Shown: one piece after another, positions 9,683 to 57,339 of the stretch
Numbering within the stretch: the first letter of the stretch is position 1
How the letters are laid out: every line of letters begins with the position of its first letter
Source of the DNA: an uncultured Vicinamibacterales bacterium
GTDB lineage: Bacteria > Acidobacteriota > Vicinamibacteria > Vicinamibacterales > JAKQTR01
Direction: 5' to 3'
DNA: 64,000 nt
Assembly (NCBI GenBank): GCA_964481395.1
Contig: CAYZYG010000014.1
Coordinates: forward strand, 217-64,216
The notes under the pieces: model-generated
What the model was told of the DNA's origin: nothing
Database searches by the model: none
Seen by the model: only the letters and a program-made list of their open reading frames with translations
Translations under genes and position numbers: made by a program

Positions 9683-12600
9683 CTACTTCCCGACGACTTT
9701 CATCAGGATCAGCCTCGCATCGTTGGCGGTCACGCGGCCGTCGCCGTCGAGATCCACACTCGTGTCCTGGCGCGTCAGTCTGACCGACATCTTGAGCGCG
9801 TCCAGGGCGCGAGCGGCCGTCATCGGCCCTCCGATTCCCTGGTTAACAGGCGACCCGGTTCCCCCGGGTTCCGCACCCCCGCTCGTGGAGCCGGCTCCCC
9901 TCCCCGGCCCAGGTGCGGGTGCGGTCGCCGGCGCGAGAGGCGCGGTTGGCGTCCCGACAGCGGCCGGCGGCGCGGACAGGGGACCGGTGCCGGCGGGGGA
10001 AGCCGGGGGCCTCGGAGCCGGATCGGATGGCGCGACATCGTGCGGAACCCGCGCGGCCTGCGCGGCTTCACACTCGCGAAGTTCAGCGGCACGCCGGGAG
10101 GTCTCCCGGTCGGTAGCGGCCCGATCGACGGACAGGCACCACTTGACGTGCGCGATACTGTCGGGATTCCAGAGTCCCGTCGGCTGGAAACCGCAACCGA
10201 CGGTCGACGCCCGCTGCACCTGTACCAGGACCGTCTTCGCGTAGTCACGGCACTCAGCTTCGCGCGCCTTGGTCGCCGCACAGTCCGCCAGCGCAGTGTC
10301 CCGCTGTCGAGCACCGGCCGCCTCCGCTTTTTCATCAACGGCGAGACACCACTTGACCTGCGCGTCGCTGTCCGGATTCCAGATTCCTGTCGGCGGAAAA
10401 CCGCAGCCGATCGACGACGCGCGCTGCACCTGCGCCAGGGCTGCCTTCGCGTAGTCGCGGCATGCCGCTTCACGAGCCTTGGTCGCCGTGCACTCTGCCA
10501 GCGCGGTGTCCCGCTCGCGCGCGCCGTCAGCCAGCGCCTTCTCATCGACGGCCATGCACCACTTGACGTGGGCTGAGACGTCGGAGCTCCATGCGCTACC
10601 CGTGAATCCGCACCCCCGGGCAGCGGCGTTCCTGACCTGCTGCGCCGCCGCGGCGGCGTACTCCCGGCAAGCTGCCTCCTTCGCGCGGCGCGCGTCCATC
10701 GCCCGCTCGCAGGCCAGCAGGGCCGTCGCCCTCCGGACTGCCTCGCGATCGGTGGCCGTCTGATCGACGGCCAGGCACCAGCGATAGTGCGAGTCGCGGT
10801 CGACGCTCCAGGTTCCGGTTTCGGCGAATCCGCATCCCTGGCGTTTGGCCTGTTGGACTTGGGTCAGCGCCGCTCCAGCGTACGTGCGACACGAGGTCTC
10901 CCGTTCACACGTTCTCCAGAGTCCGTTCCGACGTTCGACGTCGGCGTCAACCGTGGCGCGATCCGGCGCTGCGAGGCACCATTGGTACAGTGGGGCCTCG
11001 TCCCTGGCGAGTCCCTCAAGGGCACACCCCTTGGCCAGCATCGCCCGGGCCTGGTCTGCGACCGTTTTCGCGTACGTGCGACACGCCGTCTCCCGGCGCG
11101 TCACCGCCTCTCGAGTTCTTCGACATTCATCGAGCGCGCTCGTCCGGGCTGCAGTCTCGCGGTCGGCCGTCGCCGGGGTCACCGCCAGGCACCAGCGATA
11201 GTGTCCGTCACCATCGGAACTCCAGGTCCCCGTTTCGCTGAAGCCGCATCCCAGGCTCCGTGCCTGCTCCAGCTGGTTGAGCGCGCTGAGCGAGTACGTC
11301 CGACAGGTGGCCTCGCGCGCCTGCTGCCCCGAGCACGCCTCGACCAGCGCGTTGCGGCGGGCGATGTCGGCGTTCACCGCGCTTCCGTCGACACCAAGAC
11401 ACCAGCGGTACAGAGTGTTCTCATCAGCGGTCAGCCCTCCCAGCGAACAGCCGGCGGCCGTCACAGACCGTGCCTGTGTGGCCGCGTCCTTCGCGTACGA
11501 CCGGCAAGTCCCCTCTCGCCTCGCGCGGGACTCTTGAGTCGCCTTGCAACGAGCCAGCGCGCTCGTCCGGGCTGCAGTCTCGCGGTCGGCCGTCGCCGGG
11601 GTCACCGCCAGGCACCAGCGATAGTGGCCGTCACCGTCGGGACTCCAGGTCCCGGTTTCGCTGAATCCGCATCCCAGGCTCCGTGCCTGCTCCAGTTGGT
11701 TAAGCGCGCTGAGCGAGTACGTCCGACAGGTGGCCTGGAGCGCCTGCTGCCCCGAACACGCCTCGACCAGCGCGTTGCGGCGGGCGATGTCGGCGTTCAC
11801 CGCGCTCGTCTCAGCGCCAAGGCACCACCGGTAGAGTGCGTTCGCGTCCGAGCTGAGCCCCCCGAGCGAACAGCCTGCTGCGCTGAGGTTGCGCGCCTGG
11901 TCGGCCGCGCCGATCGCGTAGACGCGGCAGTCCTGGTCCCTCGGATTCGCAGGTGGGAGCGCAGCAGGGGGTGCCGGCGCCGGAGGTGCTGATACAGGCG
12001 GTCGCGTCTGGGCGGGGGGCGGAGGGGCCGCAGGGCTCGGCGCACTGGGTTTCGCCGGAGGAGGTCCCGACAGCCGTCCCCATGTCAGCCGGGTTCCATG
12101 GTTGTTCTGGCCGTCAAGCCGCTGGCCATCGGCGGACAACCTCATGGCGTCGATATAGCCGTGTTGCCAGCGTACGACCCACAGCGCCTGGCCGTTCCGA
12201 TTCTCAGCTCCCCAGGTGCAGCGATAGGCTTCGCCATTGTCGTTGACCGACCGGCACGTGCCATCGGCAGCAAGCTCGTTCACACCGCCCGGCCAGCGCC
12301 ATCTGCCGACCAGATTCAACGCGGTCCCCGCCGCCGGCCTGGCTTGGTTGACCCGCGTGCGATCCACGAACCCACTGATGCGCGTGGGACTCGGCACGGG
12401 GTTCCCGTAGCCGGGGCCTTTCAGCCAGCAGTGCCCGACGGGCCCTGACGCCCCGGGAACATTGGGCGGCAGGTACTCCCACCCGCTGCACGCCTCGTGT
12501 TGAGCGCAGGCGTTCCGGCAGACGTCCGGTCCGGCGGAGGTGTCGAAGTGATGCACGTCGCCGCCGACGATCCCGATGCCGTTCTGCATCGTACCGTGCG

Positions 12601-12691
12601 GGTACGGCTGGGCGGACGCCCCGAGTGTCCACGCCAGCATGATCGCAACGCTCCACGCCACCACACGGGGTACGGAAGTCGCCGGTCTCAT
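9683..12691 (-). CDS. secreted PAN/Apple-domain protein with nine Cys-rich repeats and a C-terminal dockerin-like module
   Basis: 1002 aa. Domain order: signal peptide MRPATSVPRVVAWSVAIMLAWTLGASAQ, PAN-like CRNACAQHEACSGWEY...GHCWLKGP, Pro-rich linkers, nine repeats of about 69 aa (CR.Y...GC...W...H..WC...C), and the C-terminal DLDGDGRVTANDARLILMKVVGK. Confidence 0.85.
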   Translation of the reverse strand: MRPATSVPRVVAWSVAIMLAWTLGASAQPYPHGTMQNGIGIVGGDVHHFDTSAGPDVCRNACAQHEACSGWEYLPPNVPGASGPVGHCWLKGPGYGNPVPSPTRISGFVDRTRVNQARPAAGTALNLVGRWRWPGGVNELAADGTCRSVNDNGEAYRCTWGAENRNGQALWVVRWQHGYIDAMRLSADGQRLDGQNNHGTRLTWGRLSGPPPAKPSAPSPAAPPPPAQTRPPVSAPPAPAPPAALPPANPRDQDCRVYAIGAADQARNLSAAGCSLGGLSSDANALYRWCLGAETSAVNADIARRNALVEACSGQQALQATCRTYSLSALNQLEQARSLGCGFSETGTWSPDGDGHYRWCLAVTPATADRETAARTSALARCKATQESRARREGTCRSYAKDAATQARSVTAAGCSLGGLTADENTLYRWCLGVDGSAVNADIARRNALVEACSGQQAREATCRTYSLSALNQLEQARSLGCGFSETGTWSSDGDGHYRWCLAVTPATADRETAARTSALDECRRTREAVTRRETACRTYAKTVADQARAMLAKGCALEGLARDEAPLYQWCLAAPDRATVDADVERRNGLWRTCERETSCRTYAGAALTQVQQAKRQGCGFAETGTWSVDRDSHYRWCLAVDQTATDREAVRRATALLACERAMDARRAKEAACREYAAAAAQQVRNAAARGCGFTGSAWSSDVSAHVKWCMAVDEKALADGARERDTALAECTATKAREAACRDYAKAALAQVQRASSIGCGFPPTGIWNPDSDAQVKWCLAVDEKAEAAGARQRDTALADCAATKAREAECRDYAKTVLVQVQRASTVGCGFQPTGLWNPDSIAHVKWCLSVDRAATDRETSRRAAELRECEAAQAARVPHDVAPSDPAPRPPASPAGTGPLSAPPAAVGTPTAPLAPATAPAPGPGRGAGSTSGGAEPGGTGSPVNQGIGGPMTAARALDALKMSVRLTRQDTSVDLDGDGRVTANDARLILMKVVGK
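11135..11803 (-). repeat. recent in-frame 423-bp tandem duplication inside the 1002-aa gene
   Basis: About 245 bp starting gcgcgctcgtccgggctgcagtctcgcggtcggccgtcgccggggtcaccgccaggcaccagcgatagtg recur at about 11135-11380 and 11558-11803 with only scattered mismatches. The offset is 423 bp, which is 141 codons or two protein repeats. Confidence 0.85.
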
Positions 12692-12752
12692 GGGCCGCCT
12701 CCGGAATCAGGAACCCCACGCTACAGGTCGACGGCCAGCTCCGTGACACGCA

Positions 12753-13451
12753 TCAGCCGAGAGCCCCACCGCACGCCCGGCAGAACCGGCTGCCGGCCTC
12801 GACGGGCTTGCCGCAGTGAGGGCAGAAGCCCTCGGCCTGGATGGTCGAGCCACGGTGCGACGCACTCTCGGGGGGCGCGGGATCAGCCTTCGTGGAGGAC
12901 CTGCGACGCGCCACGAACGCCACGGCCACAGCCACCAGCACGAGCGCCGCGGCGGCCGCCACCCACAAGAGGACCGACGTGCCTGTCCGCGTGAACGAAC
13001 CCGCCCTTGGCGCGACGGACATTTCGAGCGACCGTTCGTACTCCCACGCCAGCACCTCGTGCAGGCTGAGCGGCACGGTCGTGTCGTCGCCGTCCATCAC
13101 CGTGAAGGTCAGGATCACGAGCGGCCCGCCGGCCTGCGTCACGGCCTGCGACATGGCCGCCGCCAGGCGAGCCCGGCCTGGCTCGACCACGTTCCAGTCG
13201 AGCATCGCCCCCGGCAGAAGGCCACCCGCGGCAACGGCGGTCAGTTCGAGGACCGCCGCGTCGTAGACCACGTCGAACTGGATCGCGCCCAGGCCGACAG
13301 CCCCGTCGGCCACGACTGGAATCTCGACGCTGCCGCCGCCAGGTCCGCTCTTGGCCTCGAACCCAAGTCCGACGGGCGCGGCTGAGGCGGTCGCCGCCAG
13401 CAGGCAGGCCAGGAGGATTACGCTCCCGCGCATCGCACGATGTGCTTTCAT
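12753..13451 (-). CDS. membrane-anchored cohesin-domain protein with cytoplasmic zinc ribbon
   Basis: 232 aa. Domain order: signal peptide, cohesin-like GSVEIPVVADGAVGLGAIQFDVVYDAAVLELTAV...LVILTFTV, TM helix VLLWVAAAAALVLVAVAVAFVA followed by RRRSS, and C-terminal CPHCGKPVEAGSRFCRACG. Confidence 0.8.
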   Translation of the reverse strand: MKAHRAMRGSVILLACLLAATASAAPVGLGFEAKSGPGGGSVEIPVVADGAVGLGAIQFDVVYDAAVLELTAVAAGGLLPGAMLDWNVVEPGRARLAAAMSQAVTQAGGPLVILTFTVMDGDDTTVPLSLHEVLAWEYERSLEMSVAPRAGSFTRTGTSVLLWVAAAAALVLVAVAVAFVARRRSSTKADPAPPESASHRGSTIQAEGFCPHCGKPVEAGSRFCRACGGALG

Positions 13452-13467
13452 CGGTTTGCCCTCCTCC

Positions 13468-14883
13468 CTACTTGCCGACGACGGCCTGAAGGATCAACCG
13501 CGCGTCGTTGGCCGTGACGCGGCCATCCTTGTCCATGTCGCACTTACGATCTTCATCCAGCAGCCGCACCGACATCTTCAGCGCGTTCTTCGCATCGTTC
13601 GCGGTGAGCCTGCCATCGCCATCGGAGTCTCCCGTGAGCGAGGCCTGGCGAATCTCGACCGCCCCGTCGATGGTTGCGACACCCACCTTTGCACCGCCGC
13701 TCGCGTTCGCACTGGTGACACTCGGCACCAGAGCCGCTCGCGAACCCGCCCGGCCGACGGCCTTGAACGTAATCCCGGCAAACGGCGATCCGGTCGATAC
13801 GCTCGCCTTGCCGGCGAATCCCAGATAGATGATGCCCGGCTCACCTCTGGGACTGGCGTTCGCCTCAAAGAGCGCATCCCCGAGCGCACTGCCGCGCGCC
13901 GGCGTCCCCACAACGCTGACGACGGCGGGGTCGTACCTGATGGTGACGTTCAGACTCGCCACGTCGCCGCTCCCGATCAGTTCGACGGGAACATCGACAG
14001 TCCCGCCAGGTTCGACCGTCCTCGTGCCCACGCGTACGGAGAGGGGCACTTCGTGCTGCACCGAGTCCGGGATCCTGGGCCGATTGGGGCGATCGGGCCT
14101 GCCAAGGTCCGTCTCTCCCTGTCCTGTAGTCGTGCCGGGGCCGACCGTTGTCCCGGTGCCGCCTCCGGTTCCGGTTCCGCTACCGGTTCCGTCGCCCGGC
14201 GGTGGGGACGACTCGGGCCCTTTGGTTCTCGTCGCCTCCAGTTTCGTGTTGTACTGATCCCGGCCGTCCATCCGAGTTTCGCTGATGCTGGTCATCCACT
14301 GGACGGGACCGTCCGCCCAGCGAAACACCAGGTACTGGCGGCCGTCTTTCGTCTCCGGGCCCCAGGTGCACCTGCCCCGCGCCGTGCCGTTCTGCCGAAG
14401 GACGCAGGTACCATCCGCGAGTATCACGTTCTCCCCGCTCCACCACGTCCACGTCCCCAGTGCCGCCACCGCCGCGCCGGTCGCCGGCCGCGCGGTGTTG
14501 ATTCGCGTGCGGTCCACGAAGCCCACGTCGCGCTGGGGCTCGGCTCGAAGCGGGCTGGTCGCCCAGCCATTGAGAAGCCAGCAGTGCCCATCAGCATCCC
14601 CGCCCGATGGACGCAGAAAGTTCCAGCTGCCGCAGGTTTCGTTGGCGACGCACGCCTGCATACAGCCCTTCGCTCCGGTCGGGTTCCGGATTTCGGCAGG
14701 CGGAGATGCCGCGTTGAGCGCGTTCGTAAAGTCTTTCTGCTCCAGAACGGTCGCGTGTGGATACGGGGGCTCCTGGGCGAAGGCCCCGCCCGACGGCAGT
14801 ACCGGAATCGCCAACGTCAGGATGATGGCGCACAGGACGAACCGGATATCCGTTCCTCTCTGGGAGCACCGTCTCGTGGGCAT
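13468..14883 (-). CDS. secreted PAN/Apple + cohesin + dockerin protein (putative adaptor)
   Basis: Start chosen at MPTRRCSQRGTDIRFVLCAIILTLAIPVLPSGGAFAQ (complement 14881-14883). Domains: PAN-like CMQACVANETCGSWNF..GHCWLL, cohesin-like GGTVDVPVELIGSGDVASLNVTIRYDPAVVSVV, and two dockerin Ca loops DSDGDGRLTANDAKNAL and DMDKDGRVTANDARLIL. Confidence 0.82.
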   Translation of the reverse strand: MPTRRCSQRGTDIRFVLCAIILTLAIPVLPSGGAFAQEPPYPHATVLEQKDFTNALNAASPPAEIRNPTGAKGCMQACVANETCGSWNFLRPSGGDADGHCWLLNGWATSPLRAEPQRDVGFVDRTRINTARPATGAAVAALGTWTWWSGENVILADGTCVLRQNGTARGRCTWGPETKDGRQYLVFRWADGPVQWMTSISETRMDGRDQYNTKLEATRTKGPESSPPPGDGTGSGTGTGGGTGTTVGPGTTTGQGETDLGRPDRPNRPRIPDSVQHEVPLSVRVGTRTVEPGGTVDVPVELIGSGDVASLNVTIRYDPAVVSVVGTPARGSALGDALFEANASPRGEPGIIYLGFAGKASVSTGSPFAGITFKAVGRAGSRAALVPSVTSANASGGAKVGVATIDGAVEIRQASLTGDSDGDGRLTANDAKNALKMSVRLLDEDRKCDMDKDGRVTANDARLILQAVVGK

Positions 14884-22536: not shown

Positions 22537-23666
22537 GGGCCGATGCCCTCGGGGTACTGCAGCGCCAGGCGCAACTCCTTGGCGAGGGTGTCGACGTTCG
22601 CGTTGTTCGCCCAGGCACCCTCGGTTTCGAAGCGGAGGTCTCCGATGCGGCGTCCCCAGGGTGCAATGACCCGCCCGATCGCACGGAAGTCCGTCCGCTC
22701 GGCGCGCTCCTGGTCGAGCTGCCGGACGACGTCAGGAGCCACGCGAAGGAAGGCCCGCAAGGCGGCTGACGACTTGATGCTGTACTTGCGGCCGTTCCAC
22801 GCGGTGCCGAACAAGGTCGCGATCTGCTTGAAGTAGTTCACGAAGAAGCGCCGGGCGTCGTCGCGGAACTCGGCGCCCCGCCGGCCGCTGCCGAAGGCGT
22901 CGGTCTGGAGCAGGCGCTTCAGCTCCTGCGCGAGCGGCGCCTGGGCCACGGCGCCGTGCCCGACACCGAGCAGTTTGATCATGCCCGAGAGCGGCGAGTC
23001 CTCGCGCTCGTTCAGCGCCCGGAGGATGTCGTGCGCGGCCGCCAGATTGTCGTCGCGGTAGAGCTGGCGGCCGGACAGGCTCACGAGATGCGACGAGTTC
23101 AGCCGCGTGTGCTTCGCGTTGATCGTCACGAACATCTGGACGATGTGGTCTTCGGGAAGCTGGTCGAAGATGACCGCCGGCACCGAGAACGCCTCGCTGC
23201 CGAAGCGATCGATGTCGGCGTGCATCGCGAGCAGGCGGTGCTGGCCGTCGATGGCGCGGAGGATGCCCTCCGTCTCGGGAACCTTCAAGGTGCCGAGGTT
23301 GGAGCCTTCCTCGACCGGCACGAACGACAGCCGCTCGTCGCACGAGATGATCACCGCGCCCGGGATCGATGGAAGATCCCGCGCCTGGCGGCACTGCTCG
23401 TAGTACTGCACGAGCTCGTCGATCTTCCGCCGGATGATCTGCCGCTGGTAGGCCTTCTCGTTGGCCCCAATGCGGCGTTCCAGCAGATCCCAGTTGACCT
23501 TCGAGACTGGAGTGGTCCGCTTCTTGCCACGGACCGCCGGGTGGTGCTGTTCCCCGTAGCTCAGCACCTCGAACCGCACCAGTTTGTCGATGTCTCGGGC
23601 CGTCAGGGAGGCCTGGTAGAACTGCACCCCGAACTGCTGCATCCGGATGGCTGAGACGTTGATCAT
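22533..23666 (-). CDS. DGQHR-domain protein (DndB-like, ParB/Srx-fold superfamily)
   Basis: 377 aa with the literal motif AIDGQHRLLAM, followed by FVTINAKHTRLNSSHL. It is monocistronic, lying between convergent and divergent neighbours. Confidence 0.8.
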   Translation of the reverse strand: MINVSAIRMQQFGVQFYQASLTARDIDKLVRFEVLSYGEQHHPAVRGKKRTTPVSKVNWDLLERRIGANEKAYQRQIIRRKIDELVQYYEQCRQARDLPSIPGAVIISCDERLSFVPVEEGSNLGTLKVPETEGILRAIDGQHRLLAMHADIDRFGSEAFSVPAVIFDQLPEDHIVQMFVTINAKHTRLNSSHLVSLSGRQLYRDDNLAAAHDILRALNEREDSPLSGMIKLLGVGHGAVAQAPLAQELKRLLQTDAFGSGRRGAEFRDDARRFFVNYFKQIATLFGTAWNGRKYSIKSSAALRAFLRVAPDVVRQLDQERAERTDFRAIGRVIAPWGRRIGDLRFETEGAWANNANVDTLAKELRLALQYPEGIGP

Positions 23667-23842
23667 CGCGGGCTCTCCGGGTTGAGCCTGTCATGCTATG
23701 GCTCCCCCCGGGGAATCTCAACCGTTTTTTCACGCGATTTCGGGCTGTTTCTGCGATTATTGGGACTCTGCGCACGGGCCGTTCCCGACAACCCGGACCG
23801 GGCCGGCGTGGACATCTCTCTGACTGGCAAGGAGTTACAGGA

Positions 23843-26644
<2,802 letters not shown>

Positions 26645-28235: not shown

Positions 28236-28284
28236 GATCCCAGGTCCCCGACCCCTGTTCTTCCGTCCTCGGTCCCCGTCTTCT
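28236..28284 (-). repeat. heptamer array, degenerate GGGGACC-type, 7 units
   Basis: gatccca ggtcccc gacccct gttcttc cgtcctc ggtcccc gtcttct, immediately downstream of the penicillin acylase stop. Confidence 0.75.
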
Positions 28285-30827
28285 CACTTCGCCGGCACGA
28301 GGCGCAGCCGCGCGGCCACGTTCGCTTCGACCGCCTGCCGCGAAAACAGCATGGGATGATACCGTTCGGCCGCCCACAGTTCGAGCAGATTCCCATAGTA
28401 CGGGCTGCCCGGCTGGCCCGACGCCCCTGGCACGTTGATCATCGTCGAGCGATCCCAATCCGAAACGTCGACGACTTCGCGGAACGAGGCGCCGTGCGTC
28501 TGGCGTCGGCCTCCGCCAGTCGCGAACGGCGTGTTGCCGTCCCCGCCGCGGGGCACGTCCGGGAGGTTCAGCACGGCGCGCAGCGGGTCGGTCGAGGCCA
28601 GGGCGTGTTCCCAGGAGGCCCGGTGTATCCGGCCCCATGCCCACTGGCGCTCGTCGGGTCCCATCAGCTTGACCGCTTCCTGCCAGGCTTCGTCGAGACT
28701 GGACCCGAGGAGCACGTCCTGCACGGCGGCATCCGTGGCGGCGCGAGCGAGTTCATGCAGGAGGCGCGCGGTCGGCATCGACGATCCGACGAACGGCTGA
28801 TCCGCCTTCGGCACGAGCGCGCGGGCCGCCGCCACCGAGAGGCGAGGCACCCACAGCTGATAGAGCGCGGCCGCGGCGGATTCACGCCCCAGGACGTGGT
28901 CCCAGCCAGCCAGCAGATCGGCCGCACGGGCACGCACCGAAGGCCGGCCCTCCGAATCCGGTCCGGAAAGCAGCGGTCGCGCCCGGTGCGCGGCCCGGAG
29001 CGCGTCGCAGATCTCGCGCGCGACGACGGACAGCGCGTCGTGCTGGAGACGCTCCGAGTCCGCCACCGTGAACCGGTGACCGCTCTCGACGCCTGCGGAC
29101 AGCACCTCCACGATCCGGCGATAGCGGTACGGGGCGCTCCACTCGTAGCCCAGCGGTTTGTCGTACCCGGGCGGCAGGATGTTGTGATTGGCGGTCGCGA
29201 TGATCCCGTTCGCCGGATTGAACGCCTGTGGCAGGTCCTCCAACCGGAGGAATCCGGCCCATTCGTACTTGCCCTCGTGGCCTGGAACGGGCAGCAGGCC
29301 CGACCAGCCCGGCCGGATCGGGGCCATCCCCGCCGCCACCCACCCGATGTTGCCGTCGACATCCGCGTAGATGAGGTTCTCGGACGGCACCTGCCACCCG
29401 CGCACCGCCTCCAGGAACTCGGGCCAGCTTCGGGCGGTGTTCAGCGCGAGCGACCGCAGGTAACCGGCGGTCCCGGGCTCCATGCCGACCCATTTGAGGG
29501 CGTAGGCGCGCCGCTTGGCGGCATCCACGTGAAGCACGGGGCCGTGTCGGGTGAAACGCAGTTCGACCGCCCGCGGCCCGGCCTCGCCTCGGACGCGGAT
29601 GAGCTCGCGCTCGACACGCATGGGCTCCGACACGCCTTTGTAGAAACAGTGGTCGGGCTTCACCGGGTCGAGCCGCTCGACGTAGAGATCCTGCTGATCG
29701 ATGCCGACGATGGTGAAGCCGAAGGCCACGCGGTCGTTGTGCCCGGCTGCCACACCGGGCAGCGCGGGCTCGCCCGCGCCAATGACGTTCCAGCCCGGCC
29801 CGACCAGATGGACGCTGTAGCGCAGCGACGGCAGCGCGACGACGCGGTGCGGGTCGTTCGCTAGGATCGGCTTGCCGGTCGCCGTGAGCTTTCCGGAGAT
29901 GACCCAGTTGTTCGATCCGTGCCGCCACGCGTCCTCGGCCCAGTTGTCGAGCGGCGCGGCCGGAGCCAGCGTGTCTGCGGTCGCCGCGCGAATCGAGGCC
30001 GGTGCGCCGGGCGCCTGTGCCGCGAAGCCGAACGCAGGAGCCGCACCGCCGGCCCTGGGAAGGGTCTCGGGAAAGCGGACCGTTTCGCTGGCATCACTGG
30101 CGATGTCCATGATGGCATCCGTGATGTCGTCGAGATCGAGGCCGTCCGGGATCTCGAGGGCGATGGGGGGCTCGACGGGCTGGAACTCCGTCACGCGTCC
30201 GATGCCGACCCGCCGTGCGAATCGCGCGCGTTGGACCTCGCTGCGGGCGTTCCGCGTCATCACGTATCCGGCCATGCGCCCGATCACGACCTCCGGCGTC
30301 CACGGTTCCGGTGTGGCACCGATGAGCTGGAACTCGAGCGGCAGTTTCCCCGGGTTGGCCTTGACGTAGGCGATCTGCGCGTTGATGCCGGCAACGAACG
30401 CCTCCACGATGCGCCGGGCGTCGGGACCGTAGGCAGCCCATTCGGCCTCCATGTCGCCCCGGTAGCGGAGGAGACGTGCGAACGTGTCGCGCCTGACGGC
30501 GGATGGGCCGACCACTTCGGCCAGCTTGCCCTCCGCGTTGCGACGCCACAGATCGAGTTGCCAGAGCCGGTCCTGGGCCGCGACGTATCCCTGGGCGAAG
30601 AACAGGTCGTGGGTGGTCTTCGCGTAAATATGGGGAACGCCCCATCGATCGCGCAGCACGTCGACCTCGTCGTCGAGGCCGGGGATTTCAATGCTGCCCG
30701 AGGTCTGGGCCAGCGCGACGGCGGCGCGCTCCTTCAAGGACGAGATGGCAGAGTCCGGATCGGGCTGGCTTGCGGCCAGCGCGACGGCGACGAGCACGCA
30801 TCCCCCGACACTGAGCACCCGGTTCAT
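28284..30827 (-). CDS. penicillin acylase family protein (Ntn hydrolase, S45)
   Basis: 847 aa. Signal peptide, RDRWGVPHIYA, FAQGYVAAQDRLWQLD, and the beta-subunit N-terminal nucleophile context HGSNNWVISG. Confidence 0.9.
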   Translation of the reverse strand: MNRVLSVGGCVLVAVALAASQPDPDSAISSLKERAAVALAQTSGSIEIPGLDDEVDVLRDRWGVPHIYAKTTHDLFFAQGYVAAQDRLWQLDLWRRNAEGKLAEVVGPSAVRRDTFARLLRYRGDMEAEWAAYGPDARRIVEAFVAGINAQIAYVKANPGKLPLEFQLIGATPEPWTPEVVIGRMAGYVMTRNARSEVQRARFARRVGIGRVTEFQPVEPPIALEIPDGLDLDDITDAIMDIASDASETVRFPETLPRAGGAAPAFGFAAQAPGAPASIRAATADTLAPAAPLDNWAEDAWRHGSNNWVISGKLTATGKPILANDPHRVVALPSLRYSVHLVGPGWNVIGAGEPALPGVAAGHNDRVAFGFTIVGIDQQDLYVERLDPVKPDHCFYKGVSEPMRVERELIRVRGEAGPRAVELRFTRHGPVLHVDAAKRRAYALKWVGMEPGTAGYLRSLALNTARSWPEFLEAVRGWQVPSENLIYADVDGNIGWVAAGMAPIRPGWSGLLPVPGHEGKYEWAGFLRLEDLPQAFNPANGIIATANHNILPPGYDKPLGYEWSAPYRYRRIVEVLSAGVESGHRFTVADSERLQHDALSVVAREICDALRAAHRARPLLSGPDSEGRPSVRARAADLLAGWDHVLGRESAAAALYQLWVPRLSVAAARALVPKADQPFVGSSMPTARLLHELARAATDAAVQDVLLGSSLDEAWQEAVKLMGPDERQWAWGRIHRASWEHALASTDPLRAVLNLPDVPRGGDGNTPFATGGGRRQTHGASFREVVDVSDWDRSTMINVPGASGQPGSPYYGNLLELWAAERYHPMLFSRQAVEANVAARLRLVPAK

Positions 30828-30892
30828 AGGCCCTCCGTGACGGGATCCTATCAGCCTCCGCGCGTGCCGTGCGGTTCAGGTGGATTCGCTCA

Positions 30893-39266: not shown

Positions 39267-41138
39267 CTATTGCGGGCAGGTGCCGGGCGCGGGGGCGAGT
39301 CGCAGTCGCGTGATTCGGCCGCGGTCGGGGTCGAGACCCAGCGACAGCCGCAGATCGCCCTTCGCGCACGAAACCGTCAGTGTCGCGTTCCGCTCGCCGT
39401 CACCCGAGAGGATTTCGCCTGGCCTGCAGGAACCCCACCGGCCGGCCGCCTCGAGCGTCCCCGACACGGCTGCCGCGTCCACTCCGGGCATGCTGAGGTC
39501 ACGGACGACGGCTTCGTCGCGCGTGCCGATGAGGCTCACCACGCGCTCGACGGCCTTCGTCATGCCGGCGCCAAGCGGCATCGCCGACTCCCACGCGAGG
39601 TACTGGACCTTCGCGGGCATCGTCGGCGCGAGCGTGATCCGGACGCGGACCTGACCACGCGCGCAGCGCATCTTCCATTCACCGCGCAGCGCGTTCTCGG
39701 CGTCGATTCCGCCGTCCGGCGCGCAGGCGCCGTGCCGCGCGGCAAGCGAATCGAGGCTCGCGCGGCGACGAGGCTTCGGTTCGTCGAGATAGAGGTTGTC
39801 CGCCGCAATCCGGTCGGCGAGGGCGTCATCCCATCCGGACATCAGGCGGATCACGTCGTCTCGGGCCGCGAGCAGAGCCGGCGAGGCCTGAGGCACGCGC
39901 GCCTGAAGCCCCCCGCTACGCGCCAGCGCGTCGATCGCGTCGTCGACGACACGGGTCCAGCTCGTGTACGTGAGGTTGCCGAGCGCGATGATGCCGACGC
40001 CATGCTCCGGCAGCCAGCGCATGTGGGAACCGTAGCCTGGCAGCCCGCCGCTGTGCGCCACCTGGTGGCGAATCGCGCAGGTCTGCCAGATGCGCAGCCC
40101 GAAGCCGTAGCCCCCCGAGTTGAGGGCGAGCGGCGCATCGACCGACGGGCGCGTCACCGTCGCCGGCGCAGGGCGCCACACCTGCTGCATCTCGCGCGCC
40201 GAAGCCCGGCGTATCGGGCCGGTCTCAGGCCCATCTCGCGGAGGCCAGGCCGACATCAGGAAGCCGACGTACTTCGCCAGGTCGCTCGTGGTCGTGAGCA
40301 TGCCCCCCATCGCGCCGAATGCGCCGTCGGGAAGGGGCGGTTCCTCGACCCACGAACCGTCCTCCAGGCGGTACCCGTGCGCCAGAGCCGGGGCTGGCAC
40401 GTCAGCCGCCTCCATCGTTGTCGCGCGCATGCCCAGCGGCTCGAACACGCGCGTGCGGACGTACTGCGCGTAGGGCACGCCAGACGCGCGGGCGACAATC
40501 CTGCCGAGGATCGCGAAGCCGAAGTTGGAATACTCGTACGCGGTGCCTGGCGCCGTCGAGAACGGGATCCCGCGGCCCATCATCGCGGCCATTTCATCAT
40601 CCGTCGCGTCGAGCTGCCGGTCGCCCCACGGATTGTCTTCGGGAAACCCTTCCGCGTGCGACAGCAGGTGACGGATGGTGATGCGGGGCGAATCGGTGGT
40701 CGGGTACTTCAGGCCGGCGAGTTCGGGTACGTAGCGCTCCGCCGGGTCGTCGAGCGAGAGCCGTCCCTCGTCGCGCAGCCGGAGGATGGCCACCGCGGTG
40801 AAGCTCTTGGTCATCGACGCGATGCGGAAGACCGTGTCGAGCGTCACCGGTGAGCCGGTTCGTGTCTCCCGCTGCCCGGCGGTGCCGCTGTGCACGAGCG
40901 CGCCATCGACAAGGACGCCCCAGGCGATGCCAGGCACGCGGGACTGGGATGCAAACGCCCTGAAGAGGCCGTCGATCTCGGGGAACGCGCGCGCGAGGGC
41001 CTCGCGTCGATCGGCGTTTGGAAAGCGCGGCTCGGGGGCGACGCTGGAGGGCGCCTGTTCCTGCGCCGCAGCGCCCGCCACCACCGCGCACATGGCCGCC
41101 GCCAGGAACAGCCACAGATACCGCTGTTTCATGCGCAC
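39267..41138 (-). CDS. serine hydrolase, beta-lactamase/transpeptidase-like family, with C-terminal extension
   Basis: 623 aa. Signal peptide, FRIASMTKSF (SxxK) and YEYSNFG (YxN). Confidence 0.85.
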   Translation of the reverse strand: MRMKQRYLWLFLAAAMCAVVAGAAAQEQAPSSVAPEPRFPNADRREALARAFPEIDGLFRAFASQSRVPGIAWGVLVDGALVHSGTAGQRETRTGSPVTLDTVFRIASMTKSFTAVAILRLRDEGRLSLDDPAERYVPELAGLKYPTTDSPRITIRHLLSHAEGFPEDNPWGDRQLDATDDEMAAMMGRGIPFSTAPGTAYEYSNFGFAILGRIVARASGVPYAQYVRTRVFEPLGMRATTMEAADVPAPALAHGYRLEDGSWVEEPPLPDGAFGAMGGMLTTTSDLAKYVGFLMSAWPPRDGPETGPIRRASAREMQQVWRPAPATVTRPSVDAPLALNSGGYGFGLRIWQTCAIRHQVAHSGGLPGYGSHMRWLPEHGVGIIALGNLTYTSWTRVVDDAIDALARSGGLQARVPQASPALLAARDDVIRLMSGWDDALADRIAADNLYLDEPKPRRRASLDSLAARHGACAPDGGIDAENALRGEWKMRCARGQVRVRITLAPTMPAKVQYLAWESAMPLGAGMTKAVERVVSLIGTRDEAVVRDLSMPGVDAAAVSGTLEAAGRWGSCRPGEILSGDGERNATLTVSCAKGDLRLSLGLDPDRGRITRLRLAPAPGTCPQ

Positions 41139-41208
41139 TCCTCTGGGATTGGGGATTGAACACTCGCGCGCGCGTCCGACAATGACTCCGGGAGTGATTC
41201 TCAGAACC

Positions 41209-41229
41209 GGTCCCCGATCCCCGGTCCCC
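41209..41229 (-). repeat. heptamer array, GGGGACC/GGGGATC-type, 3 units
   Basis: ggtcccc gatcccc ggtcccc, downstream of the MscS-cNMP gene. Confidence 0.85.
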
Positions 41230-41285
41230 GGCTTGCCTCGACGAAGCCGCGCCGCAACGCGTTTGGCGAAGTCGGGTCCCTGTTC

Positions 41286-42728
41286 TTAGAGTCCCAGAAA
41301 CGCCTGAATCCGCGACAGCAGAGACCGTGACGTCTCTGGCGCCTTGCCGCGCGCCGCGGCGGCCTCGTCGCGCTGGCGCTCCAGGTCGGCCCGGCGAGCC
41401 GCGACCACGTCGCTGATCGTCGCGAGCACGTCCGCGTTCACCAGCGCCAGTTCGCGCAGGGCATCGGCCGTCAACTCGATCAGCTCGCACTCGGTCTCGG
41501 CGAAGACAGAGGCGGACCGGGGCTGCCCGGTCAGCATCGACATCTCGCCGAAGTACCCGTGGCGCCCGATCGTGGCGAGCACCACCCCGGACGACTCAAC
41601 GACCCTGACCCGACCGGACGCGACGACGAACATCGACCGCCCTTCGTCGTTCTGGCGCACGATCAGGTGTCCCGACCCGTAGATCTGCTCTGCCGCATGC
41701 GCCGCGAGATCGTAGCGTTGCTGGTCGCTGAGCGGCGCGAAGAGGTCCACGTGGCGCAGGACGCCGTCGATCCGCGCGATCCGGTCCCCTGGCCGTTCGG
41801 GTACCTCCTCGCGCTGGTACTCGATCTGGATCGGCCACGGGATTTCGTAGCCGCAGCGCCTGAGCGCGTAATAGATGGCGGAGCGCACCTGGTCCCTGGC
41901 GCGGGTGTCGGCCGCGAAGTCATCGATCCAGAAGCGCACCAGATAAATGATCGCGGACGCGCCGAAGTCCTGGACCAGAATCTCTGGCGGCGGATCCCGC
42001 AGCACGAGCGGCAATTCGCGCATCCCCTCACGAATGCACGCCTTCACCCGGTCGGGCGGCACGCCGTAGGCCACGCCGACTTCGATTTCCAGCCGCGTCG
42101 GGACGTCGGGCTCCGAATAGTTGACGATGGCCTCTTTCGAGATGAACGAGTTCGGCAGAATGACCTGGTTGCCGGACTTCGTGCGCATCTTCGTGGCCCG
42201 CCAGGTCACCTCGGTCACGATTCCTTCGTAGGGGCCCACCGTCACCCAGTGCCCGACGCGGAACGGCTTCTCGACCTGGATGGCGAGCCCCGAGAACATG
42301 TTCCCGAGCGTGTCCTGCAGGGCGAACCCGACAACGACCGCGCCGACGGCGGAGGTCGTCAGGAACTTCTCCTGCATCACGAAGGTCGACACTAGCACGA
42401 ACAGCCCGACGATGATGGTGTCCTGGACGATGTTCGGGAAGCGCTCCGGTACCCGATCGACCCTGAGCGGGTTGATGAGCCCCACCACCATCAGGGTGAT
42501 GGCCGACAGGGCCGTCAGCAACTGGTTGATGGAGACGATGCGAGCCTTGAGGTCGTCGCCGACCGGCACGTTCCACAGGAAGAGATTGACGGTGATGTTC
42601 ACCGCGAGCAGCAGGATCGGGAGGCGGAGCTTCTGCCGCACGAGGCGGTTCACGCTGACGCCCCTGACGAGCAGCGTCAGCACGAGAACGCTGAGGCTGA
42701 TCGCCAGTCGAATCGGAATGTCGTTCAT
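41286..42728 (-). CDS. MscS-family channel with C-terminal cyclic-nucleotide-binding domain (bCNG-like)
   Basis: MscS pore helix GFALQDTLGNMFSGLAIQVEKPFRVGHWV. cNMP-binding motif GYFGEMSMLTGQPRSASV near the C-terminus. Confidence 0.88.
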   Translation of the reverse strand: MNDIPIRLAISLSVLVLTLLVRGVSVNRLVRQKLRLPILLLAVNITVNLFLWNVPVGDDLKARIVSINQLLTALSAITLMVVGLINPLRVDRVPERFPNIVQDTIIVGLFVLVSTFVMQEKFLTTSAVGAVVVGFALQDTLGNMFSGLAIQVEKPFRVGHWVTVGPYEGIVTEVTWRATKMRTKSGNQVILPNSFISKEAIVNYSEPDVPTRLEIEVGVAYGVPPDRVKACIREGMRELPLVLRDPPPEILVQDFGASAIIYLVRFWIDDFAADTRARDQVRSAIYYALRRCGYEIPWPIQIEYQREEVPERPGDRIARIDGVLRHVDLFAPLSDQQRYDLAAHAAEQIYGSGHLIVRQNDEGRSMFVVASGRVRVVESSGVVLATIGRHGYFGEMSMLTGQPRSASVFAETECELIELTADALRELALVNADVLATISDVVAARRADLERQRDEAAAARGKAPETSRSLLSRIQAFLGL

Positions 42729-42823
42729 GGCTGCTTGTCGATCTCTCGTCCGTGAGCGTGGGCGCCGGTTCCGGAGGACAGCCCTGACGTTGCCGCTTCC
42801 GAACCCTCAAGCCGTGCGGAACC

Positions 42824-42885
42824 GGATCCCGAATCCCGACCCCCGGTCTGAAGCACTGGTCCCCGGTCCCCGATCCCCGGTCCCT
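42824..42885 (-). repeat. heptamer arrays, GGGGACC/GGGGATC-type, 4 + 4 units
   Basis: ggatccc gaatccc gaccccc ggtctga, a 6-nt break, then ggtcccc ggtcccc gatcccc ggtccct, abutting the M48 stop. Confidence 0.9.
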
Positions 42886-42886
42886 G

Positions 42887-44062
42887 TTACTTCAGCAGTC
42901 CCTTCGTCTTGAACTCCGCGATGTCCGCCGGCGTGAGGTTGATGACGACCAGTGTCTTGACCGGGCCGCCCTTCGCGTTGCGTTCCGTGTCCACGCCGCG
43001 CGACGCGCCGGACCCTGTCACTTCAGCCGATTTCTTCTCCGACCCGCCGGGTTTCAGCAGGGACCCCAGGCCGAATCCTTTTTTCTTCGGTTCATCCTTC
43101 TTCCCGGCGTCCGACGAGCTTCCGCCCGACTTGCCCGACGATCCGCCCGCGAGGCCAGCCGTCCCTTCGGCCACCGTGGCGATTTCGGTGACCGGCTTGG
43201 CGGTGTACGTGATGGTCGCCTTGTAGCGGTCGGCCAGCACGGCCTCGCCGTTCATCTTCCCGTCCTTGATGATCTTGTCGATCTTCGAGAGGCGCTCGTC
43301 CATCTCGGGATGGGACGCGAACAGGCCCTGCTTCTCGGTCGCGGACTTATTCCGTTCGGTCAACCGCGTCAGGAAGTCCGGCAGACCGGACGGTGCGTAC
43401 CCGACCTTGTTGGCCAGCTCGAGCCCTTCCCGGTCGGACTCGAGTTCCTCCGACCGTCCGAACCCCGCCATGACCAGCTCGGTCGTCTTGTCGACGAGCT
43501 GCGAGAACAGCGCCGCGTTGTTCGAGAGGGTCTCCTCGGCGCCCATCTGGATCATCTTGCCCTTCTTGATGGCGCTGATCGTGTGCTTCTCCGTCACGTG
43601 GACGATCTCGTGAGCGAGCACGCCGGCCAGCTCGGCCTCACTCGACATCAGCCCGAGCGCGCCCCGCGTGATGTGCACGAAGCCTCCCGGCGCGGCGAAC
43701 GCGTTGACGCCGTCGGTGTCCAGCACGATGAACGTGAACGGGAGGTTCGGCCGCGTGCTGCGCTGCACGAGCACGGACCCGACCAGCGACACGTAGCGGT
43801 GCACGGCCTTGTCCTGGACCACGCCGTAACGGTTGCGGACCTTCTCGCTGACCGCCGCGCCCAGCTTGATCTCCTCGTCCTCCGAGATCTGCAGCTCCCG
43901 CAGCTGGTTCGCCCGCTTCAGAATCCCCCCGATCTGCGGGAGTCGGGAGTCGGGAGTCGGGAGTCGGGGCGTTGCCCCCCAGCCCGCATTCGGCGCTGCC
44001 ATCCCCGCGGCCACCGCGGCCGCCACCCAGATCACCATTCGGCGCATCGGCGTGTTCTCCAA
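42887..44062 (-). CDS. M48-family zinc metalloprotease, periplasmic
   Basis: Active-site motif LAHEIVHVTEKH (HExxH). Signal-like MRRMVIWVAAAVAAGMAA; the start may be the ATG at complement 44047. A Gly/Ser/Lys-rich C-terminal region is present. Confidence 0.85.
   Translation of the reverse strand: MENTPMRRMVIWVAAAVAAGMAAPNAGWGATPRLPTPDSRLPQIGGILKRANQLRELQISEDEEIKLGAAVSEKVRNRYGVVQDKAVHRYVSLVGSVLVQRSTRPNLPFTFIVLDTDGVNAFAAPGGFVHITRGALGLMSSEAELAGVLAHEIVHVTEKHTISAIKKGKMIQMGAEETLSNNAALFSQLVDKTTELVMAGFGRSEELESDREGLELANKVGYAPSGLPDFLTRLTERNKSATEKQGLFASHPEMDERLSKIDKIIKDGKMNGEAVLADRYKATITYTAKPVTEIATVAEGTAGLAGGSSGKSGGSSSDAGKKDEPKKKGFGLGSLLKPGGSEKKSAEVTGSGASRGVDTERNAKGGPVKTLVVINLTPADIAEFKTKGLLK
43938..43965 (-). 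repeat. heptamer array, GGGAGTC-type, 4 perfect units, inside the M48 coding sequence
   Basis: gggagtc x4. It encodes TPRLPTPDSRLP just after the predicted signal peptide. Confidence 0.95.
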
Positions 44063-44128
44063 GTCGCGCGGGCCGCAAGGCCGTCAAGGACGTCGGGCTC
44101 TTCCGCCGGGTCGGCGTGCTGAGGCCGA

Positions 44129-46162: not shown

Positions 46163-46231
46163 GAGGACGCCCGCACCGACCGGGGTAGCGGTGAGGCCGG
46201 CGACGTCGCGCGTGGAGCGCGACGTCGAGTC

Positions 46232-46259
46232 GAGTCCCGACGCCCGACTCCCGATTCCC
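46232..46259 (+). repeat. heptamer array, GACTCCC-type, 4 units
   Basis: gagtccc gacgccc gactccc gattccc, in the divergent region between the cyclase and ornithine cyclodeaminase genes. Confidence 0.8.
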
Positions 46260-46293
46260 GGTGATGCCCCGCCCCTCGCGCTACAATGCCCCG

Positions 46294-47265
46294 ATGCGCC
46301 TGCCCTTCATCGACGAGCCCGCGATCCGTGAGTCGATCACCGCCGCGGAGGCCGTGGCTGCCGTCCGCGAGGCGTTCCGGGCTGACGGCGAAGGCCGGAC
46401 GGCCGTGCCCGCCGTGATCAATCTGCCGATCCCAGGCACGCAGGGGGAGTTTCACGTCAAGACCGCCTGGGTGGAAGGAGTGCCGTTCATCGCGGTGAAG
46501 GTGGCCTCTGGATTCTACGACAATCCAGCGCGGGGGCTACCCACCGGCTCCGGCATGATGGCGCTCTTCGACGCGGGAACCGGCCTGCCGGCGGGCCTCA
46601 TCTTCGACAACGGCTACCTCACCGATTTGCGGACCGGTGCCGCGGGCGCTGTTGCCGCCGATGCGCTGGCTCGCCGTACGATGGCCACCGTCGGTGTCAT
46701 CGGGTCCGGCGTGCAGGCCCGCCACCAGGTGACGTGCCTGCGGGAGGTCCGGTCGTTCTCGGGAATTGTGGCCTGGAGCCCCGACCGGCCGGGGCTCGAG
46801 CGATACTGCGCGGAAATGGCCCGGACGCTGGGCATCGAGACCCTCGCGGCACCGTCAGCAGAAGCCGTCTGCCGCGAGGCGGACGTGCTCATCACCGCCA
46901 CGCCCTCGCGAGAACCCTTCATCCGGACCGGGTGGCTGCGGCCGGGCATGCACGTCACGGCCTTGGGATCCGACACGCCGGGCAAGCAGGAACTCGATGC
47001 GGCGTGCCTCGCGCGCGCGGATCTGGTTGTCGTCGATCGCCTCGAACAGTGCGCGCGGTTCGGTGAACTGTCACACGCCCTTGCGGCGGGTCTGCTCGCA
47101 CCAGAGCGGATCACCGGTCAGCTCGGCGAAGTAGTCGCGGGCCGCCGGCCCGGCCGCACGGACGACCGGCAGATCACGATCTGCGATCTGACGGGAGTGG
47201 GCTTCCAGGACACGGCCATCGCGGCGCTGGCGTGGTCCAAAGTACGTGAAAAAGGCCTCGCGTGA
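46294..47265 (+). CDS. ornithine cyclodeaminase / mu-crystallin family protein
   Basis: Start MRLPFIDEPAI. Rossmann VGVIGSGVQA, and LGSDTPGKQELD. Confidence 0.85.
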   Translation: MRLPFIDEPAIRESITAAEAVAAVREAFRADGEGRTAVPAVINLPIPGTQGEFHVKTAWVEGVPFIAVKVASGFYDNPARGLPTGSGMMALFDAGTGLPAGLIFDNGYLTDLRTGAAGAVAADALARRTMATVGVIGSGVQARHQVTCLREVRSFSGIVAWSPDRPGLERYCAEMARTLGIETLAAPSAEAVCREADVLITATPSREPFIRTGWLRPGMHVTALGSDTPGKQELDAACLARADLVVVDRLEQCARFGELSHALAAGLLAPERITGQLGEVVAGRRPGRTDDRQITICDLTGVGFQDTAIAALAWSKVREKGLA

Positions 47266-57171: not shown

Positions 57172-57339
57172 GTTCGGCGACGTATAGCGGTCGAGCGTCG
57201 AGACCTTTTCGCTCGCTCAGCACTCAGTCCTGAGGGCGCAAGGATCGTTGCCGTGCCTTCGCCTCGAAGAACTGAGAGGCCAACGCCCTGGCGGGAGCCC
57301 GCCCGGCGCCGCCCGCGCGGTCGTGACGCGCGTCCTTCC

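Follow-up and report, generated by a model that had tools for sequence, protein, structure and literature searches.

A bacterial cohesin-dockerin gene pair of the Archaeoglobus fulgidus type, with a predicted membrane anchor, in an uncultured Vicinamibacterales bacterium

Three genes, here called A, B and C, form a cluster in a 64,000-nucleotide (nt) stretch of an uncultured Vicinamibacterales bacterium (Acidobacteriota; contig CAYZYG010000014.1, positions 217 to 64,216), which we refer to as the window. A encodes a protein with both a cohesin and a dockerin, B a predicted membrane-anchored cohesin, and C a dockerin protein with a repeat rod. An earlier note on this DNA had described three consecutive minus-strand genes separated by 16 and 61 bp, and the open reading frame (ORF) listing agrees with it in every coordinate: the ORFs are co-oriented, with 16 nt between A and B and 61 nt between B and C (Table 1). 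Each has an upstream Shine-Dalgarno sequence (GGAGGAGG at 8 nt from the ATG of B, GGAGG at 6 nt from the ATG of C), and the GC content at third codon positions in the annotated frames (0.79 for A, 0.85 for B and 0.78 for C) is typical for genes of the window, which has 69% GC. A scan found no terminator-like hairpin inside the cluster, and a promoter and terminator scan of the cluster gave no match, using consensus sequences that may not fit the host organism. The packing appears operon-like, as the earlier note had supposed, and a single transcript would be our reading of the spacing and the Shine-Dalgarno sequences.

Gene A reads as an adaptor whose variable head is followed by a cohesin and, at the C terminus, by a dockerin, and gene callers on independent public contigs arrive at an identical 471-amino-acid (aa) product. 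Its head begins with a PAN/Apple module that scores 27.0 bits against PAN_4, equal to the Pfam cut-off of 27, and the four Cys of this module are conserved in A, C and two relatives (P0002 and P0003). AlphaFold2 (AF2), run on an alignment of 4 sequences, models the PAN part with low confidence (predicted local distance difference test (pLDDT) <50), and the model does not confirm the fold. The next module, previously described as a two-Cys module of roughly 80 aa, is ~87 aa long and is predicted to form a small beta-barrel of eight strands (block pLDDT 74-88); the signal peptide, PAN module, linker, cohesin and two-loop dockerin that had been assigned to A all stand. Foldseek returns weak lipocalin-like matches for the barrel (Tp0751, Omp19 and the protease inhibitor LupI, E ~0.03; Tp0751 probability 0.99), and we treat 'lipocalin-like' as no more than a lead. 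A low-complexity linker equivalent to the Gly/Thr/Pro-rich segment of A is present in every A-like relative. The cohesin lies well above the Pfam threshold (PF00963; 46.4 bits, 6e-12, residues 282-411; cut-off 24.1) and scores 174 bits with the profile hidden Markov model (HMM) that we built for A-type cohesins, as opposed to 32 bits with the B-type HMM. In the dockerin, the loops DSDGDGRLTAND and DMDKDGRVTAND are both of the DxDxDG...D type and each is followed by a helix, and the two-segment dockerin feature (~22 residues per segment; Ca loop with D1, D/N3, D/N5 and D12, then a helix) is complete.

The protein encoded by gene B is also annotated, in exactly this form, on 10 public contigs. 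Its cohesin again exceeds the Pfam cut-off (39.2 bits, 1e-9, residues 34-145) and belongs to a different type from that of A, with 161 bits from the B-type HMM against 33 bits from the A-type HMM; the two window cohesins are 30% identical over 82 aa. Hydropathy gives B a signal peptide and one helix (residues about 159-181, then RRRSS) and no other hydrophobic segments, and Pfam places a zinc ribbon behind the helix, which upholds the previous description of B as a secreted cohesin with one transmembrane (TM) helix and a cytoplasmic zinc ribbon. We read B as a bitopic membrane protein whose cohesin faces outward. A cleaved sorting signal at the B C terminus (PEP-CTERM, GPS-CTERM or sortase) was considered and rejected for the window: no profile comes near its cut-off, and behind the helix there is a folded zinc ribbon. 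NCBIfam profiles found nothing meaningful in A, B or C, sortase-type and CTERM-type matches being far under their cut-offs.

Gene C encodes no cohesin, and hydropathy detects no transmembrane segment in its product, which we take to be exported like that of A. Its head aligns with that of A at 38% identity overall, with conserved Cys, Trp and Gly positions, and the two heads are paralogous; the PAN module of C scores 29.9 bits (PF14295; cut-off 27). Between head and dockerin lie nine tandem four-Cys repeats together with two Pro-rich linkers. A single repeat is modelled by AF2 as a three-helix unit (pLDDT 96.3). The repeat has no Pfam match, no significant match in a sequence search of the PDB (best E 0.34) and no Foldseek match for its fold in the PDB (best E 9.4), and the only homologue found is HEX4953491.1 (P0010), a secreted 496-aa protein of a Thermoanaerobaculia metagenome-assembled genome (MAG) with six repeats and without a dockerin. 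We regard the modelled three-helix repeat as an unclassified domain. The PAN/two-Cys head, the nine Cys-rich repeats and the dockerin that had been read in C are all borne out, with one correction: the first Ca loop of the dockerin, NQGIGGPMTAAR, is degenerate and has lost its Ca ligands. The second loop, DLDGDGRVTAND, is intact, so that C carries half of the two-segment feature. The helix motifs ALKMSVRL and TANDARLIL are common to the dockerins of A and C, which therefore probably have the same specificity.

Table 1 Features of the A-B-C cluster, in window coordinates
Feature	Position	Strand	Basis
Gene A, 471 aa	13468..14883	-	ORF; Pfam Cohesin, PAN_4, Dockerin_1; ATG at 14883
A signal peptide, aa 1-36 (AFA/QE), predicted	14776..14883	-	Sole hydrophobic segment of A (hydropathy)
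A PAN/Apple module, aa 60-104; Cys 74, 78, 84, 101	14572..14706	-	PAN_4 and Cys positions
A 'two-Cys' module, aa 136-222, ~87 aa	14218..14478	-	AF2 small beta-barrel
A Gly/Thr/Pro-rich linker, aa 223-278	14050..14217	-	Read from sequence
A-type cohesin, aa 279-413	13645..14049	-	Pfam Cohesin; A-type HMM
A dockerin, aa 418-471, C-terminal, two intact Ca loops	13471..13632	-	Family dockerin HMM, 98 bits
Gene B, 232 aa	12753..13451	-	ORF; Pfam
B-type cohesin, aa 26-158	12978..13376	-	Pfam Cohesin; B-type HMM
B transmembrane helix and basic cluster, aa about 162-185	12897..12968	-	Kyte-Doolittle maximum 2.84, windows 156-165; then RRRSS
B cytoplasmic zinc ribbon (CPHC...CRAC)	12756..12836	-	Zn_Ribbon_1, 32.2 bits, 8.7e-8, residues 209-228
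Gene C, 1002 aa, no cohesin	9683..12691	-	ORF; Pfam PAN_4; family dockerin HMM
C head: PAN aa 43-91 and beta-barrel module aa 119-207	12071..12565	-	Alignment to head of A, 38% identity
C nine tandem repeats, 62-74 aa, four Cys each	10064..11935	-	C-x18-C-x15-18-C-x21-C
C dockerin, aa 953-1002	9686..9835	-	Family dockerin HMM, 85 bits; 60% identity to A dockerin

Word-indexed homology searches are too insensitive for these proteins, returning 8 proteins for A and only itself for B, and an exhaustive profile search was required. Four of the 8 matches to A carry unrelated heads on the same linker-cohesin-dockerin tail, and in all 4 contigs the next gene has a product of 208-247 aa that combines signal peptide, cohesin and TM helix. 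A scan of GTDB species representatives, to which the genome of the window does not belong, added four further loci (one Pirellulales MAG, one Gemmataceae MAG and two Verrucomicrobiota MAGs) and a metagenome scan gave more. When six-frame translations of the loci are searched with one HMM for each cohesin type and a third for the dockerin, the A-type module is found in 20 distinct loci, 18 of which can be evaluated downstream. A B-type cohesin gene lies directly downstream on the same strand in 17 of these 18, which span Planctomycetota, Verrucomicrobiota, metagenomes and probable archaea; outside the window the two genes overlap by up to 11 nt or stand up to 34 nt apart. The HMMs tell the two cohesin types apart cleanly, each type scoring 4-5 times higher with its own model, and around the A-B pairs there is no other conserved neighbour, including no sigma factor or regulator. 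The lone exception is locus L043, in which B is reduced to a remnant and another A-like gene comes after it.

Two further arrangements tie A to B. In P0102, a protein of 848 aa, a head, an A-type cohesin, a dockerin, a 68-aa linker, a B-type cohesin, a TM helix and a zinc ribbon follow one another in one chain, and this fusion is, in our reading, a Rosetta-stone link of the two genes. Locus L042 contains two tandem A-B pairs whose B copies are 45% and whose dockerins are 54% identical; since the pairs have diverged, each A would keep its own B. We take A and B to be functionally linked because of the adjacency in 17 of 18 loci and the natural fusion. The third gene is less constant. The earlier note had suggested checking whether all three genes stay together in relatives, and the adjacency of A and B is what held; the order of all three genes is not itself a conserved feature, since B is followed by a third gene with a dockerin in only 4 loci (the window, L012, L042 and L046), each time with different content: the 1002-aa C here, a 131-aa protein with signal peptide, linker and dockerin in L012, and proteins of ~190 aa with an N-terminal dockerin and then an uncharacterised ~120-aa domain in L042 and L046. 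In the last two loci the gene order is A, B, dockerin protein, as in the window.

Three of the collected loci show irregularities of their own. In L043 (3795-6794) the two tandem A-like genes have near-identical cohesin regions and unrelated heads, with a 39-bit B-type remnant between them, and the first of them is a close relative of the A-like gene of L007; the arrangement suggests head swapping through recombination at the conserved tail. In the MFD-named MAGs of L014 (7581-9213, Pirellulales) and L017 (7392-9189, Gemmataceae) the A-like or B-like genes are frameshifted, and because both halves score high on the HMM we suspect assembly errors rather than pseudogenes.

The family around A is large. 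A HMMER search with an alignment of the A-type cohesin-dockerin tail against 1.84 billion cluster representatives (50% identity) gives 14,259 matches at E <= 1e-3 and 447 at E <= 1e-30, and the tail defines at least 447 protein clusters with hypervariable heads. Head, A-type cohesin and dockerin follow one another in 152 of the 159 proteins collected. Within this set the dockerin sits at the C terminus (median tail 1 aa) and the linker between cohesin and dockerin has a median length of 7 aa, with a range of 4-58 (~45 in P0006 and P0007); the heads have a median length of 285 aa and range from 1 to 1348. Pfam recognises Cohesin in 77 and Dockerin_1 in 26 of 86 full-length members. Most heads are without any Pfam match, and those with one contain FecR (6 of the 86), LCCL (3) and also CarboxypepD_reg, TSP3_bac, Rxt3, WSC, LGFP, PKD and Big_9. 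No enzyme domain was detected by Pfam in the heads of these 86 members, only binding or structural modules. Judging by head kinds such as PAN, WSC, LCCL, LGFP and FecR, one may speculate that the heads bind envelope or external polymers. A large subfamily of A-type dockerins (among P0038-P0159) has a conserved Cys pair, GDCDGDG...DALCALxMSV, that the window dockerins lack; the pair points to a disulfide that would join helix 1 to the first Ca loop.

Every B-type protein terminates in a membrane anchor made up of a TM helix and a basic tail, to which a zinc ribbon is optionally added. Among the 12 B-type sequences examined, the ribbon is confined to those of the window, L008, L012 and P0102, and the other tails are 4-20 residues long or of CTERM type. 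In the low-GC loci L042 (81-6417) and L046 (3-1658) the B proteins carry a TPGFE motif ahead of the TM helix and its basic tail, and these ends score 19-21 bits against Heimdall-CTERM and Loki-CTERM, below the cut-off of 24; on the strength of this sub-threshold likeness both loci are probably archaeal. A ribbon on the cytoplasmic side invites the thought of a trans-membrane sensor comparable to RsgI/FecR-type systems, in which a ligand on the A head would signal through the B helix to the ribbon, and the FecR domains among the A-like heads fit such a role. Since most of the B-type sequences examined lack the ribbon, and no conserved sigma factor or regulator stands beside the pair, we consider signalling of this kind very unlikely.

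To place the two cohesins among known structures, we compared both profiles with the PDB. The entry 2xdh comes first for each (3e-22 for the B type, 4e-9 for the A type), with 82 bits against 59 for the next match in the B-type search, where the best cellulosomal cohesin reaches 4e-15, and with 39.8 against 35.1 bits in the A-type search. The significant matches of both profiles are cohesin chains only (2xdh, 3l8q, 1g1k, 2vn5, 4ums and others). Both window cohesins are therefore evidently related to the solved nine-stranded jelly-roll cohesins and, by these scores, closer to the cohesin of A. fulgidus than to cellulosomal cohesins. KTTII, the N terminus of 2xdh, agrees with the VPPKTTI that the 'cohesin 2375' forward primer of PMC3520109 encodes, by which we identify 2xdh as the noncellulosomal cohesin of Archaeoglobus fulgidus ORF2375. 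In that study, dockerin 2375 and cohesin 2375 were used as a cognate pair (PMC3520109). Strong and specific binding is likewise described for Doc2375 (aa 432-506) with Coh2376 (aa 29-162) (PMC9705933), a paper that cites Haimovitz 2008 and Voronov-Goldman 2011 for this interaction. A. fulgidus thus has a single dockerin able to bind both cohesins, that of its own protein and that of the neighbour.

The archaeal pair and the window pair are alike in several respects. ORF2375 and ORF2376 are adjacent genes; one encodes a ~500-aa protein with an internal cohesin and a C-terminal dockerin, as A does, and in the product of ORF2376 the cohesin comes just after the N terminus, as in B (aa 26-158), a likeness that concerns the position of the cohesin. 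Neither pair has a cellulolytic context, and 2xdh is the best solved relative of both window cohesins. The window differs in its bacterial, diderm host, in the PAN and beta-barrel head and in having a third dockerin protein with a new repeat; the B anchor consists here of a TM helix and a zinc ribbon. On sequence and layout, we classify the cluster with the noncellulosomal cohesin-dockerin pairs of the A. fulgidus type, as a bacterial representative. The earlier note had ranked it as an undescribed system, a claim that falls given the layout of ORF2375/ORF2376, the sequence relationship and the fact that noncellulosomal modules have been surveyed since 2009. That survey covered noncellulosomal cohesin and dockerin modules of all three domains (Peer et al. 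2009, as cited in PMC9012536 and PMC6461901). In the searchable literature, which did not include the full text of the 2009 survey, we met no account that treats the conserved adaptor-anchor gene pair as a family. Specific to the window are a PAN-barrel head in duplicate, once in A and once in C, the zinc ribbon at the end of B and the dockerin-tagged protein made of an unclassified 4-Cys helical repeat.

Taken together, these data incline us, with modest confidence, to the view that the cluster encodes a non-catalytic, membrane-anchored cohesin-dockerin assembly of the ORF2375/ORF2376 type, with B as the anchor, A docked on B, and the cohesin of A taking up C or another A. B would be exported and its C-terminal helix would tether the cohesin to the cytoplasmic membrane on the outer side, while the zinc ribbon, where there is one, would stay in the cytoplasm. 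A, also exported, would plug its C-terminal dockerin into the B cohesin in a Ca2+-dependent manner, and its own cohesin would accept one more dockerin of this type, supplied by C or by a further A molecule. The outcome would be a short membrane-tethered chain that displays PAN and beta-barrel heads on flexible or rod-like spacers in the envelope. In a diderm this complex would sit on the periplasmic face of the inner membrane, with the ~55-aa Gly/Thr linker of A or the long repeat rod of C as spacer. The earlier note had judged the host to be a diderm; the window contains two TonB-dependent receptors with Plug and CarboxypepD_reg domains, and on this ground the host has an outer membrane. Its reading as an Acidobacterium is plausible, since the one homologue of the C repeat comes from a Thermoanaerobaculia MAG. 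The dockerin-cohesin pairing, the order of assembly and the periplasmic location are what we infer from the comparisons above.

Several observations count against this assembly, the first of them concerning the dockerins themselves. Against Dockerin_1 (PF00404; cut-off 22.9), A scores 17.0 bits over residues 418-464 and C 13.4 bits, so that the Pfam profiles bear out only part of the earlier assignment: Cohesin in A and B lies above, and PAN_4 in A and C at or above, the cut-off, while Dockerin_1 in A and C lies below it. One could conclude that the modules are vestigial, the cohesin-like and dockerin-like domains being Ig-like and EF-hand spacers that do not bind each other, and the A. fulgidus modules have indeed been called an 'enigmatic vestige' (Bayer et al. 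1999, as cited in PMC9012536). The motifs ALKMSV and DARLIL and the invariant Ca-loop aspartates are, however, strongly conserved in this dockerin family across phyla, the A-B pair is strictly syntenic and also fused, and the archaeal homologues bind in vitro (PMC9705933); loss of binding is accordingly a highly improbable account. Relatives with the same dockerin module rise above the Pfam cut-off (P0015 with 28.2 bits, the third gene of L042 with 29.6 bits). The A dockerin is moreover 50-58% identical to dockerins of rumen Clostridia, and a Pfam scan of five such proteins gives 4 of 5 a Dockerin_1 score of 24.7-37.2 bits, two of the four being BspA-type leucine-rich repeat proteins. We regard the dockerins of A and C as evidently genuine despite their sub-threshold scores.

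The number of modules per locus raises a second difficulty. Minimal loci encode two cohesins and one local dockerin, and one cohesin is left empty unless A self-associates or has partners elsewhere; the two cohesins per dockerin in most loci favour A self-association or partners encoded elsewhere. This stoichiometry, in which the A cohesin needs a partner, is what a daisy-chain polymer would account for, with the dockerin of one A in the cohesin of the next, head to tail, the filament starting at B and ending at C and the heads carried on Gly/Thr linkers. It agrees with the dockerin 2375 of A. fulgidus being cognate both to the cohesin 2375 of the same protein (PMC3520109) and to cohesin 2376 (PMC9705933), and with a highly conserved cohesin-dockerin tail beneath hypervariable heads. 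The A and B cohesins are nevertheless distinct, in identity as in HMM score, which suggests distinct roles or specificities; oligomerisation of A is itself a prediction, and the A. fulgidus results were obtained in vitro with isolated modules. We rate the polymer as rather unlikely. The further-reaching claim that A and B assemble by themselves into a non-covalent daisy chain with its root in the cytoplasmic membrane, with B as base, A as repeating unit and C as cap, seems to us more doubtful still. Were it true, the chain would be an envelope fibre or tether of diderm bacteria and archaea with interchangeable hypervariable binding heads, and would represent, with no relation to pili or S-layers, a new class of envelope-spanning assembly.

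The linker between cohesin and dockerin in A, only ~4-7 aa long, counts against the assembly in another way, since an intramolecular, self-capped unit becomes possible. The dockerin of A would then fold onto its own cohesin, and the B cohesin would receive other dockerins (from C or encoded elsewhere) or the composite unit. A linker of very short and conserved length throughout the family and a dockerin that is always C-terminal suit such a unit. The longer linkers of some members, those of P0006 and P0007 among them, do not, and the fusion protein P0102, in which the B-type cohesin stands 68 aa past the dockerin, is better explained by pairing of the dockerin with the B cohesin; in most loci there is, besides, no other local dockerin for B. 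Self-capping is in our judgement improbable, below the polymer in likelihood.

Against the membrane-anchored assembly stand, finally, points of location and of coevolution. With nine three-helix repeats and two Pro-rich linkers, C may be longer than the width of the periplasm and is then a poor fit to a purely periplasmic complex, and no route of export to the outer membrane is evident. Dockerins are clearly more similar within a locus than across loci in L012 only (67%), marginally so in the window, and show no excess of within-locus similarity in L042 and L046, and we do not use this comparison as evidence of co-evolution. The pairings among the A, B and C modules are predicted from sequence and from the archaeal precedent.

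In its plug-and-socket logic, and in having an adaptor with both a cohesin and a dockerin, the assembly recalls the cellulosomes and amylosomes of Bacillota, with which it also shares, in A, a dockerin close to the type I dockerins of rumen Clostridia. It departs from cellulosomes in almost everything else. A and B have one cohesin per protein and there is no multi-cohesin scaffoldin; Pfam and NCBIfam detect no glycoside hydrolase, carbohydrate-binding module (CBM), SLH domain or sortase partner in A, B, C or the flanking genes, as had been noted before, and the predicted anchor is a membrane helix in a diderm. The cargo consists of binding modules only: the family dockerin HMM, run over the 64 kb window, finds A and C and no further copy, and no dockerin-bearing carbohydrate-active enzyme occurs there. 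A true cellulosome, which would call for a multi-cohesin scaffoldin, dockerin-bearing enzymes with a CBM, and SLH or sortase anchoring, was therefore rejected on what the 64 kb window encodes.

Two other noncellulosomal systems invite comparison. A 'planctosome' has been hypothesised for Nemodlikiaceae, built on an LTD-anchored protein of 2,210 aa with dockerin-bearing M12B and M14 peptidases (Andrei et al. 2019, PMC6461901). Like the window cluster it is a proposed non-cellulolytic assembly, there in bacteria of the Planctomycetes-Verrucomicrobia-Chlamydiae (PVC) superphylum, with an adaptor composed of dockerin, binding domain and cohesin, and relatives of gene A occur in Planctomycetota. 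The window, by contrast, has a TM protein of 232 aa as anchor, with no LTD domain and no dockerin-bearing peptidase seen; a planctosome was rejected on these grounds, the LTD domain being absent and the M14 peptidase of the window (23663-26644) having no dockerin of the family type. In anaerobic methanotrophic (ANME) archaea, multi-cohesin scaffoldin-like proteins occur with dockerin-tagged ATP-binding cassette (ABC) substrate-binding and S-layer proteins (Chadwick et al. 2022, PMC9012536). These proteins are likewise noncellulosomal and cell-envelope-associated and have variable partner domains, whereas in the window cluster two genes with one cohesin each form a fixed module.

Catalogues of noncellulosomal cohesins and dockerins go back 25 years, and a conserved adaptor-anchor module makes their role testable. 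The A-B module recurs across Archaea, the PVC superphylum and the present diderm host, with hypervariable heads in which only binding domains are recognised. With its natural fusions and paired duplications, the module supplies defined pairs for binding tests, a membrane location to verify and a family large enough for covariation analysis, and hundreds of natural, possibly orthogonal cohesin-dockerin pairs could serve protein-assembly engineering. The finding sharpens a long-standing question and overturns nothing.

The cluster is flanked on one side by arginine-biosynthesis genes (N-acetyl-gamma-glutamyl-phosphate reductase-like, amino-acid kinase, class-III aminotransferase and ArgJ) that converge on C, and on the other by a divergent gene for a PDZ/Sel1 protein and a tRNA U5-methyltransferase-like gene. 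The stop of argJ on the plus strand (9674) and that of C on the minus strand (9683) leave 8 nt between them, in which no terminator-like hairpin was detected, and the convergent transcripts of argJ and C would collide or overlap. Elsewhere in the window, an 844-aa protein (54682-57216, minus strand) joins a beta-lactamase-family domain to the exo-beta-N-acetylmuramidase NamZ, of which it has both domains; near it are genes for another protein of the beta-lactamase family (39267-41285) and for a penicillin amidase (28284-30875). On the minus strand at 41286-46306, a CHASE2-sensor adenylate/guanylate cyclase lies near an MscS-type channel (41286-42806) with a C-terminal cyclic-nucleotide-binding domain, a 398-aa ORF standing between the two, and cyclase and channel may together form a mechanosensitive channel module gated by cyclic nucleoside monophosphates.

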